A stretch of 64,000 nucleotides of DNA from Escherichia coli (GTDB taxonomy: Bacteria > Pseudomonadota > Gammaproteobacteria > Enterobacterales > Enterobacteriaceae): assembly GCF_003790525.1 (NCBI RefSeq), contig NZ_CP033635.1; one strand, 5' to 3'. Below are positions 6,001-9,000 of the stretch, in pieces; the stretch's first letter is position 1; every line of letters begins with the position of its first letter. The position numbers are program-made.

Positions 6001-9000
6001 GTGAACCTCCGAACAACTGTTTTACCCGGTACATCGCTGTTTCCGCTATCGAACGACGGTTATAATCTGTTGTCCATTTACACCGGGCATTACTTCCGGT
6101 CAGCCGCTGATTAGCCACTGCACGGTTACGGTCTTCGTATTCACCGGGCTAGTAACCCGCACCTTTTCGGGAAGGGGTAAGCGCGCTGATTTTCTTACGC
6201 CTCAGTTCATCGTGACAGAGTCGGGGGTCGTAAGCCCCGTCTACCGCTGCAGCCATGATTTTTCTGTGAGTCTGTTGGAGAAGCCCCGGGAAGGCTTCTG
6301 AGTCCGTGACGTTGTTCAGCGACAGGTCTGCACAGACAATTTCATGTGTGTTGCCATCAACAGACAGATGCGACGCCCCTCTTTGCCGTGCTTTTTGGCT
6401 TTCCTTTCGCCTTCCCCAAAGACTTTTAGCCCGTTGGAATCAATCACGAGGTGTATGATTTCACCCCGGGTGGGGATTTATGTATAAGAAACAGCGTATT
6501 CGTGAGGGGTGAGCCATGAATAAAATCCCTTTTGAAGTATTAATCCACTCTGAAAATGCATTAATCTGCGCAAAGGAAATGGACGCGTTATTAATTAAGT
6601 TAATTGATATTCCGGAAAGTGGCGATAAAACATATTCGATGACGGACAGGCGACAATGTGGTTATCTGTGCTGGCGTTTGGCAGACAGGCCGAAGCACTG
6701 GCCAGACACCAGAAAGGCGAACTGGTAAGCGTGGCAGGTAACATGCAGGTCAGCCAGTGGACAGGGCAGAACGGGAAAACGCGGCAGGGACGGCAGGTTA
6801 TCGCAGACAGCGTAATCAGTACTCAAACGGTGCGGCCAGGAGGAAGCAGACGCGAAACCACAGGTACACAGGGTAATCAGCCACCAACGGGAGGCGACGC
6901 CACTTACGGAGATGATATACCCTTATGAATTAAGCGGGGCGCAACATGAACAACAGCACACTGAAGAGCCGGACAATAAGCGACGCGACAGCGGAAGAAC
7001 TCGAGAGCAGGGGACTGTGGCGACGTGCTGCCAGAAGGTGGCAGGATGTGATGATTACTCTTGAGAAAGACAGTCACAGACAGCTTGCAGTAATGAGAGC
7101 AAGGGAATGTATCAGGAAGGCAAAACGCCCGATACCTGAAAGCCGTATTGATATTCATACAGTCAGAAAGGCCGCAGACAGGACAATACAAAAAATGGGG
7201 CTACCGTCGCTTACTGATGAAATATGGCGCGATTACCCTGATAGCGTTAACGATGACGGTTATTAACTGGCGGGGGAAACACGATACCAGCGGGCGTGAC
7301 TCGGGAGAATATATACCGCTGGTGGAACATTACCGGCCCTGATGGCTGGTGGCGTGCGTTACGACCTGAAAGACCATCCATGCGGGAAGGTGACACAGGA
7401 GCACCTGGCGAACGCGGGGAAGCGACTGGATGAGATTAAGAAAAAACAGCAGGAGCGCAGAAAAAGTAACCGTCTCATTAAAACGTCTTTCGCCTCCCTT
7501 TCCTGTTTCCTATGCTAATGTCCATTTTCGCAGTAAAAGGACATTTACGATGAATGCACGAAAGGCGGTACTGGCAGATAATCCGGAATTGATCCTGCGT
7601 TTGCTACAACTGAAATTTGACGAGACACTGTCGTACCCGCGCATTTCTGCACAGACCGGTGTCAGCAAAACCGCTATTTTTTCTCTGGTGAGGCGATTTC
7701 ATCAGGTATTCACTGACGGGCATCTTTCTGGTGAATATTCCTGCGTGCAACTGACCGGGCTCTTTTCCCGGGGCGATAATATTCAGCCCCGACAGTGACT
7801 CAGCCTGTAAAAACAGAGAAAACCCGTCGGAACCGATTTTCACCAGAGTAAAAATGGAGACTTGTTCAGCAAACTCTTTTACCCGGAGCCTGTGTGGCCC
7901 AGATTGCACGAGAGTCTGGCATCAATGATAATGTTATTTTCAAATGGCTCAGACTCTGGCAAAACGAAGGGCGTGTTTCGCGGCGTCTTCCGGTAACAAC
8001 CACTTCTGACACAGGCGTTGAATTATTACCTATGGAGATAACGCCGGATGAGCAGAAAGATCCGATGATTCCCCTACCGCCAGCTTTTCGCCTGCGCCGG
8101 TATACGTTTCTTTATCTTTGCCCTGCATCACCCACAGGCTGGCTCCGCCGATAATGGCGTTTTGTGGTGCATCTTTCGCGTCAGCGTCGTAAGGCATCAT
8201 GCCTACGCCGTAGTTGAATTTGGCGTACTCGCGAATGTTGGCAAGAGAACCGGAAGAGGCGGTGGTCATCGCGCAATCACCTCTATAGAACTTCTCGGTG
8301 GATTCATCCTTACGCCCGACGTAGATGAAGTCGCCCTTCTTGTTCATCTCCTCGAGCATGACGATGTGTTTCACCTGCTCCGGCTTGTTGAACTCCAGCA
8401 CCGCGTCCGTGGCGTCAAAACCGTTGTTTTTGCTGGCAAACGGCAGACCGTTCCTGGCGCTAAAGTTTTCCAGTTGTATCCACCTCTTTGCCCATTTCCC
8501 CTTCCATAGAGTTCCAAAACGGAATGGTCGTCACTGCCTGTGCATTGCCCATTAACGCCAGTCCGAGCACCAGTGATGAAGCTGTATAATGTAACGGTTT
8601 CATCGTTTATCTCTCTTGCTTGTTGTACCTGATGTGCAAATTCACTCGTTTTATGCTCGCGGGATTACATATCATGCCCGAATTGCAGAAAAATAACTTT
8701 TTATTACATGTGTAAGACAGTAAAACCTCAGAAAGATGACAGTGTGGTGCCGGCGCGGGTGAGGAAAAATGGAAGATGGGGAATGTATAAGCGGGAAAAT
8801 AGGAGGGCCTGTGGATTGTAGATAATGTGCTCATCGTTTTCATGCCGGATGAGACATAAACACTTTTATCTGAGCATTTCTATGTATTCGGACAGTTGTT
8901 CTTGGCATCCAATGGTGCAGGTTCTGTAGTGTGTGGTGGTAGCAATAGCCTCAGCTTCATTACAATATTTATTATCTCAAACATTCAAATGTCCTTGGCC

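Follow-up and report, generated by a model that had tools for sequence, protein, structure and literature searches.

Within 64,000 nucleotides of the Escherichia coli chromosome (contig NZ_CP033635.1 of assembly GCF_003790525.1; this whole stretch is called the window below), a gene for a PerC-like regulator, here called perC, stands intact among broken genes, just behind the remnant of a gene for a single-stranded DNA-binding protein (ssb). We asked what kind of element brought these genes in and what its lone survivor might do. Positions 6495-7463 are what decay has left of the middle of a phage-inducible chromosomal island (PICI), a phage satellite, inside a mosaic E. coli virulence island full of insertion sequences (IS). 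Our best overall reading, which we hold at a probability of roughly 0.8, is a PICI remnant reduced by two deletions, with perC as the sole intact gene and a likely silent or weakly expressed passenger. The original prediction had described plasmid or prophage leading-region debris: the plasmid half of that description did not hold, as satellites are colinear with all of 6495-7463, and the prophage half was nearer the truth.

The assignment is carried by colinearity with intact PICIs (Table 1). L007, L008, L010, and L014 all carry DNA colinear with 6638-7329 (88% identity) and 7329-7463 (93%), separated by one 372-bp gap, and the L010/L014-type match comprises 826 bp in total at 88 to 93% identity with the gene order kept. 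The closest intact relatives, whose PerC proteins are 86.8% identical to that of the window, are four IMG/VR contigs (L007 to L010) together with L014, an uncharacterized element of ∼10 kb that strain Br_112_kylling carries between cspD/yljB and clpS. By Pfam, L014 encodes an integrase, Phage_AlpA, a D5-type primase, SSB, PerC, ProQ/FinO, and an Nu1-like TerS and has no conjugation genes, which is the published anatomy of Gram-negative PICIs; L010 has the same gene order, followed by a capsid gene. The ancestral order is int-alpA-icd-DUF4222-primase-hyp-ssb-perC-proQ/finO-terS, where hyp is a small hypothetical gene. The remnant shares with intact PICIs the ssb-perC-proQ/finO order and, to the base pair, the spacing that places the perC start 17 bp past the ssb stop codon, and it has a small early gene in common with capsid-forming PICIs (cf-PICIs). 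Two of the latter, L005 (chromosomal) and L003, carry ssb and then perC. Related arrangements occur in an element at tRNA-Pro (L004; ssb-proQ/finO-perC) and in the O157:H7 island between roxA and phoQ (L013), which is OI-51/CP-933C and in which ssb is followed by pchE (PMC3378721). Several E. coli PICIs pair a gene for a ProQ/FinO-domain (RNA chaperone-like) protein with perC in varying order, with proQ at 12340-12876 in L004 (ssb-proQ-perC) and at 10305-10985 in L010 and 11413-11997 in L014 (both ssb-perC-proQ).

Compared with intact E. coli PICIs such as EcCIEDL933 (OI-51/CP-933C), EcCICFT073, EcCIMP1, and L014, only ∼970 bp of a ∼10-kb element is left, and its surroundings are a large virulence island instead of a PICI attachment site. 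The remnant and its immediate flanks, where fragments of IS5 and IS66 mark the limits, contain no integrase, AlpA, primase/replicase, or packaging gene. Lacking integrase, alpA, primase, terS, and att sites, it should be incapable of excision, replication, and packaging, and we predict that induction by a helper phage is likewise impossible. E. coli PICIs commonly encode PerC alleles (PMC6092414, PMC11773190), and older annotations listed such satellites as cryptic P4-like prophages (PMC3378721). PICI-borne PerC alleles are already published, and the locus holds an uncharacterized PerC member on the remains of an element of known type. Among 50,697 phage records searched by tblastn, only four weak PerC matches (33 to 40% identity) and no full-size phage relative were found.

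The two deletions account for the present shape of the remnant. The first joins codon 42 of the early gene to codon 41 of ssb at the junction 6638-6642, with loss of DUF4222, the primase, the small gene, and ssb codons 1-40. Upstream of it, the early-gene peptide MNKIPFEVLIHSENALICAKEMDALLIKLIDIPESGDKTYSM aligns with L005 MHKIPFDVLVHSENALIRAKEMDALLLKLIDVPESGDESDSM; the L005 homologue matches phrog_2196, and the place of this gene in intact elements is behind the icd-like gene. Downstream, the ssb remnant is colinear from codon 41 with L010, L014, and L005, and Pfam SSB (PF00436) covers only profile positions 49-101 of 104, leaving an OB fold without its first 40 codons. The ssb remnant and its acidic GDDIPL tail had been recognized in the original prediction, and both are present. 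The tail reads YGDDIPL in the window versus YGDDIPF in the intact SSB of L014. The terminal Phe of SSB is important for partner binding, so the change from DDIPF to DDIPL fits relaxed constraint. The second deletion, of 372 bp, removed the ribosome-binding site, start codon (11413 in L014), and 118 codons of proQ. What remains is 93.4% identical in DNA to L010 and L014, and Pfam ProQ (PF04352) matches it over profile positions 70-108 of 109 only. Neither this ProQ/FinO-domain fragment nor the early-gene fragment at 6495-6642 had been mentioned in the original prediction. PGAP/RefSeq enters two of these pieces as ordinary proteins, a 98-aa SSB fragment (6632-6928) and a 58-aa "ProQ/FINO family protein" (7342-7518); the latter open reading frame (ORF) uses an internal Met as its start, and its last 17 residues are read into the IS66 end. 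Both are pseudogene pieces.

Table 1. The satellite remnant, its alignments with intact satellites, and its flanking features (window coordinates).
Feature	Coordinates	Strand	Details
Early satellite gene, 5' fragment	6495..6642	+	Start codon at 6516 and first 42 codons of a gene for 75 aa
ssb remnant	6638..6928	+	Codons 41-136 of a 136-aa satellite SSB
perC	6946..7266	+	Intact 321-bp ORF, 106 aa
perC-proQ intergenic remainder	7267..7329	+	Ends at the 372-bp deletion junction at 7329
proQ/finO-like remnant	7329..7463	+	About codons 119-163 of a 194-aa protein
Alignment with L005 6039-6187	6495-6642		81.9% DNA identity; early-gene start and first 42 codons
Alignment with L014 10705-11395	6638-7329		88% DNA identity; ssb from codon 41, perC, most of the perC-proQ spacer
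Alignment with L014 11768-11903	7329-7463		93% DNA identity; proQ codons ∼119-163
IS5-family transposase remnant, N-terminus missing	5900..6474	-	Left boundary; PGAP annotation of identical DNA in strains SCU-115 and SFE8
IS66-family (ISCro1-type) left end	7466..8086	+	tnpA pseudogene at 7550-8079
ugpB-like pseudogene and upstream region	8081..8861	-	Residues 1-43 (8603-8475) and 188-328 (8518-8081) of 438

Conjugative plasmid leading regions carry ssb, and PerC-family genes occur on some plasmids at ∼40% identity (Serratia, Klebsiella, Escherichia albertii), so that ssb and its neighbors could in principle have come from the early-transferred region of such a plasmid. We consider this origin very improbable. 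Among the matches listed from a search of 72,556 plasmid records, five matched the ssb part and the others were to IS66; the perC match stood directly beside the ssb match in three records, and the two that we examined were a PICI and a cf-PICI. Both read int-alpA-icd-DUF4222-primase/helicase-hyp-ssb-perC, with capsid or terminase genes next, and the flanks of one are the chromosomal genes roxA and phoQ. Neither psiB, ardA, nor other leading-region genes are in the remnant, and the whole of it is colinear with satellites. The synteny comparison with plasmid leading regions that had been proposed thus led to satellites instead: blastn and tblastn of the 72,556 plasmids returned no real leading region with this synteny, which effectively refutes a plasmid origin. 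Some PLSDB "plasmid" records carry chromosomal DNA in the order roxA-PICI-phoQP-purB (L002, NZ_CP031350.1), and a 32.5-kb circular "plasmid" record carries a capsid-forming PICI (L003, CP088587.1); such records are possibly misassemblies or excised forms of satellites.

An integrating conjugative element (ICE) seems an even poorer candidate. Elements of this kind carry ssb, and pseudogenes of one (TIGR03756 and TIGR03757 genes) lie ∼8 kb away in the same island, and the remnant could be a further piece of it. The best intact matches (88 to 93% over 826 bp), however, are satellites of 10 kb that have genes for AlpA, a D5-type primase, and TerS but none for conjugation, and IS fragments stand between the remnant and the ICE pieces.

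The gene that outlived the rest encodes a clear PerC-family protein. The Pfam search proposed in the original prediction confirmed its reading of the ORF at 6946-7266, with PF06069 matched at 97.4 bits (cut-off, 22.6; E value, 5.9e-28) by residues 11-99 on profile positions 2-89 of 90; phrog_994 is matched at 3.6e-28, and RefSeq names the protein "PerC family transcriptional regulator" (WP_001066120.1). Its claim that perC is the only apparently intact regulator here also stood, as perC is the sole intact gene between the IS5 and ugpB remnants. Amino acid identity falls from 86.8% (PerC of L010 and L014) to 48.9% for PchE, 47 to 48% for cf-PICI alleles, 43% and 35% for the two L004 alleles, and 36.5% for a PerC-family protein encoded among phage lysis genes (WP_001303878.1; L012). 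An exhaustive HMMER search of 1.84 billion representatives recovered 116 relatives at E values of ≤1e-3, 87 of which were used for the conservation alignment and for the family comparison below. R26, R27, A28, and W32 are invariant across the 87, and A16, L19, E20, G23, R31, and C55, all present in the window protein, are kept in at least 90% of them. A word-indexed protein search gave only eight close matches, including the 85%-identical P0002, whose contig, at 609 bp, is too short to show any gene context.

Among characterized relatives, the nearest in setting is PchE, the class 3 PerC homologue of OI-51 in enterohemorrhagic E. coli (EHEC) O157:H7, which is also a PF06069 member occupying the slot directly after a satellite ssb. 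The two share the core AEELExxG(L/F)(W/Y)RRAAxRW...EC.RKA, but the window protein, at 106 versus 90 residues, is extended by 9 residues at its N-terminus and has a longer acidic C-terminal end. PerC of enteropathogenic E. coli (EPEC) and PchA/B/C of EHEC, which activate LEE1/ler by relieving silencing, belong to PF06069 and have the invariant RRA...W core as well; their genes lie on phage-type or plasmid elements, whereas the window perC comes from a satellite. We also considered whether perC is pchD, a gene of the iha-bearing O157 islands OI-43/48, and rejected this at the DNA level: the O157 genomes among the matches listed hit only the ssb part. The perC DNA itself had no match outside its 51 carriers when 5,426 complete genomes were searched.

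A profile search of PDB sequences returned only nonsignificant matches to ribosomal protein S3 and hence no solved relative by sequence. The AlphaFold2 model (mean predicted local distance difference test score, 82) is all-helical, with helices at residues 14-22, 25-38, 42-59, and 70-83 that form hairpins like those of tetratricopeptide repeats, and it has no helix-turn-helix motif. A Foldseek search of BFVD placed a phage protein named "ANR family" among the top fold matches. The NCBIfam ANR model (NF033650) is matched by 48 of the 87 PerC-family proteins at an E value of ≤1e-3 and by 82 of them at ≤1, with the window protein at 0.012 over residues 15-61. The spacing A16-x3-E20-x7-A28-x3-W32...R51-x3-C55 moreover reproduces the ANR signature A10, E14, A22, W26, R47, and C51 (PMC4983702). 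We infer that the PerC (PF06069) and ANR (NF033650) families have a homologous three-helix core, a statement that holds at family level. Compared with the ANR family (Aar, Rnr), whose members are small anti-activators, PerC proteins add a C-terminal part of 40 to 50 residues with a fourth helix.

This kinship suggests how such a protein could work. Pch relieves silencing by H-NS, StpA, and Hha at LEE1, removing H-NS from the promoter, and acts broadly on H-NS-bound horizontally acquired DNA (PMC4764244). Binding partners of the ANR proteins Aar and Rnr include H-NS, Ler, and AraC-family proteins (PMC10148876, PMC4983702). If it is made at all, the window PerC would, like Pch/PerC and ANR proteins, act by protein contacts that disturb silencing complexes of the H-NS family or activators of the AraC type, and it would not be expected to act as a classical helix-turn-helix factor. 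We infer from this analysis that it may be a small helical protein that modulates complexes of nucleoid proteins or activators. Several points weigh against so simple a transfer. The window protein scores below the ANR cut-off (15.4 versus 32 bits). A protein-contact mechanism for PerC proteins is not established, because H-NS, in an observation that Fukui et al. give as unpublished, did not coprecipitate with PchA and because Pch binds DNA at many loci (PMC4764244).

The original prediction had further pointed to PerC proteins as activators that switch on virulence loci. The PerC-like protein EcCIMP1_025 of the PICI EcCIMP1 represses LEE1, in trans (PMC11773190), and LEE1 promoter fusions did not respond to the PerC-like genes of EcCIEDL933 and EcCICFT073, according to a passage of the same paper that cites Porter 2005 (PMC11773190). 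Activation of virulence loci by the window PerC would accordingly be judged less likely, because PICI alleles are reported to be inactive or repressive on LEE1 and because the gene array upstream of perC has been lost.

That loss also bears on whether perC is expressed. In intact satellites, perC lies far downstream in a same-strand gene array beginning with alpA, and the upstream part of this array is deleted in the window. A strict consensus scan of the + strand from 5700 to 6946 found no sigma-70 consensus promoter. Expression is doubtful because the upstream array is deleted and no consensus promoter was seen, and judging from the sequence, perC is most likely a passenger, silent or weakly expressed, that mutation has merely not reached yet. 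A strict scan could have missed a weak promoter or read-through transcription, and the intactness of perC gives no signal of selection in either direction because its carriers are at least 99.8% identical across this stretch. The dN/dS ratio against the intact PICI allele is 0.38, a value that mostly reflects history before the decay and does not tell earlier selection apart from selection after it.

The alternative is that perC was domesticated, that is, kept by selection after the decay of its element and now modulating the H-NS-silenced iha, sit, or iuc genes, or flagella and curli, as reported for PchE. We regard this as unlikely. Its being the only intact gene amid broken neighbors fits such a role, as do the changes in flagella, curli, and adhesion upon PchE overexpression (PMC7369912), the broad action of Pch on horizontally acquired DNA (PMC4764244), and the activity of the EcCIMP1 protein on LEE1 in trans (PMC11773190). 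A 321-bp ORF is easily spared by chance, however, and the satellite array and any consensus promoter are missing upstream. Genome comparison lends no weight either: among 5,426 complete genomes, ∼49 (isolates from humans, poultry, pigs, and wild birds) contain positions 6400-8700 at ≥99% identity, and these 49 near-identical copies, with perC intact in essentially all carriers, hold no evolutionary signal, while the allele as such is rare (51 of the 5,426 genomes). Improbable to a similar or greater degree is the fuller proposal that the orphan gene was domesticated and that its product works through ANR-like contacts with H-NS- or AraC-family proteins, without DNA binding of its own. It would then tune iha, sit, and aerobactin genes of an island of the type found in extraintestinal and avian pathogenic E. 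coli, or motility and adhesion, and PerC and ANR would form one superfamily with one mechanism and a native job in the satellite life cycle.

In the carrier genomes, the PICI remnant lies inside a large mosaic island whose first gene, beside ynjA, encodes a tyrosine recombinase and which also carries iha, sitABCD, iuc/iutA, sodC, ICE fragments, and dozens of broken insertion sequences. We considered this recombinase as the satellite's own integrase; it is 26 to 35% identical to the PICI integrases compared, a level that is uninformative, and the idea is unsupported. Elsewhere in the window, Rfam matches above the gathering score were found for the island-type Hfq-binding small RNAs isrC, isrN, and STnc490 and for a group II intron domain, at 18738-18860 (+), 30242-30384 (-), 54584-54705 (-), and 49590-49676 (+).

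The left boundary of the remnant has itself been disturbed. Comparison with L001 indicated that the IS5 remnant is split in the window by an insertion of ISEc12 (3372-5949). This insertion is recent, because the island of SCU-115, identical in other respects, lacks it. ISEc12, of the IS21 family, has intact istA and istB, and its flanks overlap by ≤11 bp in the alignment. On the right, satellite sequence ends at 7463, and the IS66 terminus GTAACCGTC begins at 7466. The IS66-family tnpA-like fragment noticed earlier is real, with 89.9% identity between 7448-7931 and 3501-3984 of L016, an ISCro1-family IS66. It has no tnpB, tnpC, or right end, and its TnpA homology (tblastn) falls into two pieces, 7550-7753 and 7756-8079, that together cover residues 1-168 of 216; the reading frame shifts near residue 69 and contains a stop codon, as PGAP also flags ("frameshifted; internal stop"). 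A second IS66-family TnpA homologue lies in the island at 41526-42152 (-) and is 60% identical to the ISCro1-type TnpA.

The truncated ugpB was likewise correctly recognized. It lies on the minus strand and is 84 to 96% identical in nucleotides to core ugpB (L017; 95.7% over 8087-8482 and 84.0% over 8478-8861 by blastn, with tblastn matches as well). The remnant has an internal deletion of ∼456 bp and a 3' end cut off by the IS66 fragment, and its two parts lie in different reading frames; homology to UgpB is not full length, and we classify it as a pseudogene. In one respect the earlier description had to be corrected. The IS66 end was said to overlap ugpB, but TnpA homology ends at ∼8079 and ugpB DNA homology starts at 8087; the apparent overlap arises because an ORF (7894-8154) reads through the junction and from the limits that PGAP assigned to the pseudogene. 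Matches to the ugpB stretch were found in 5,424 of the 5,426 genomes through core ugpB, mostly at 90 to 95% identity, and core ugpB maps elsewhere in the same genomes; the remnant is a second, foreign allele. Beside it lie frameshifted ABC transporter genes and an intact PhoX-family phosphatase gene, and the remnant may belong to an imported cluster for phosphate scavenging that has since decayed.

For annotation, the value of this locus is that a stretch with the look of plasmid debris is what remains of a phage satellite. Fragments of satellites build up in mosaic virulence islands, and a small regulator can persist there after the satellite that carried it has decayed. The finding is real but ordinary, and the locus itself is unremarkable; its wider interest lies in the link between the PerC and ANR families. 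One paper had already hinted at this link, and a common core could help to resolve how PerC and Pch proteins act.

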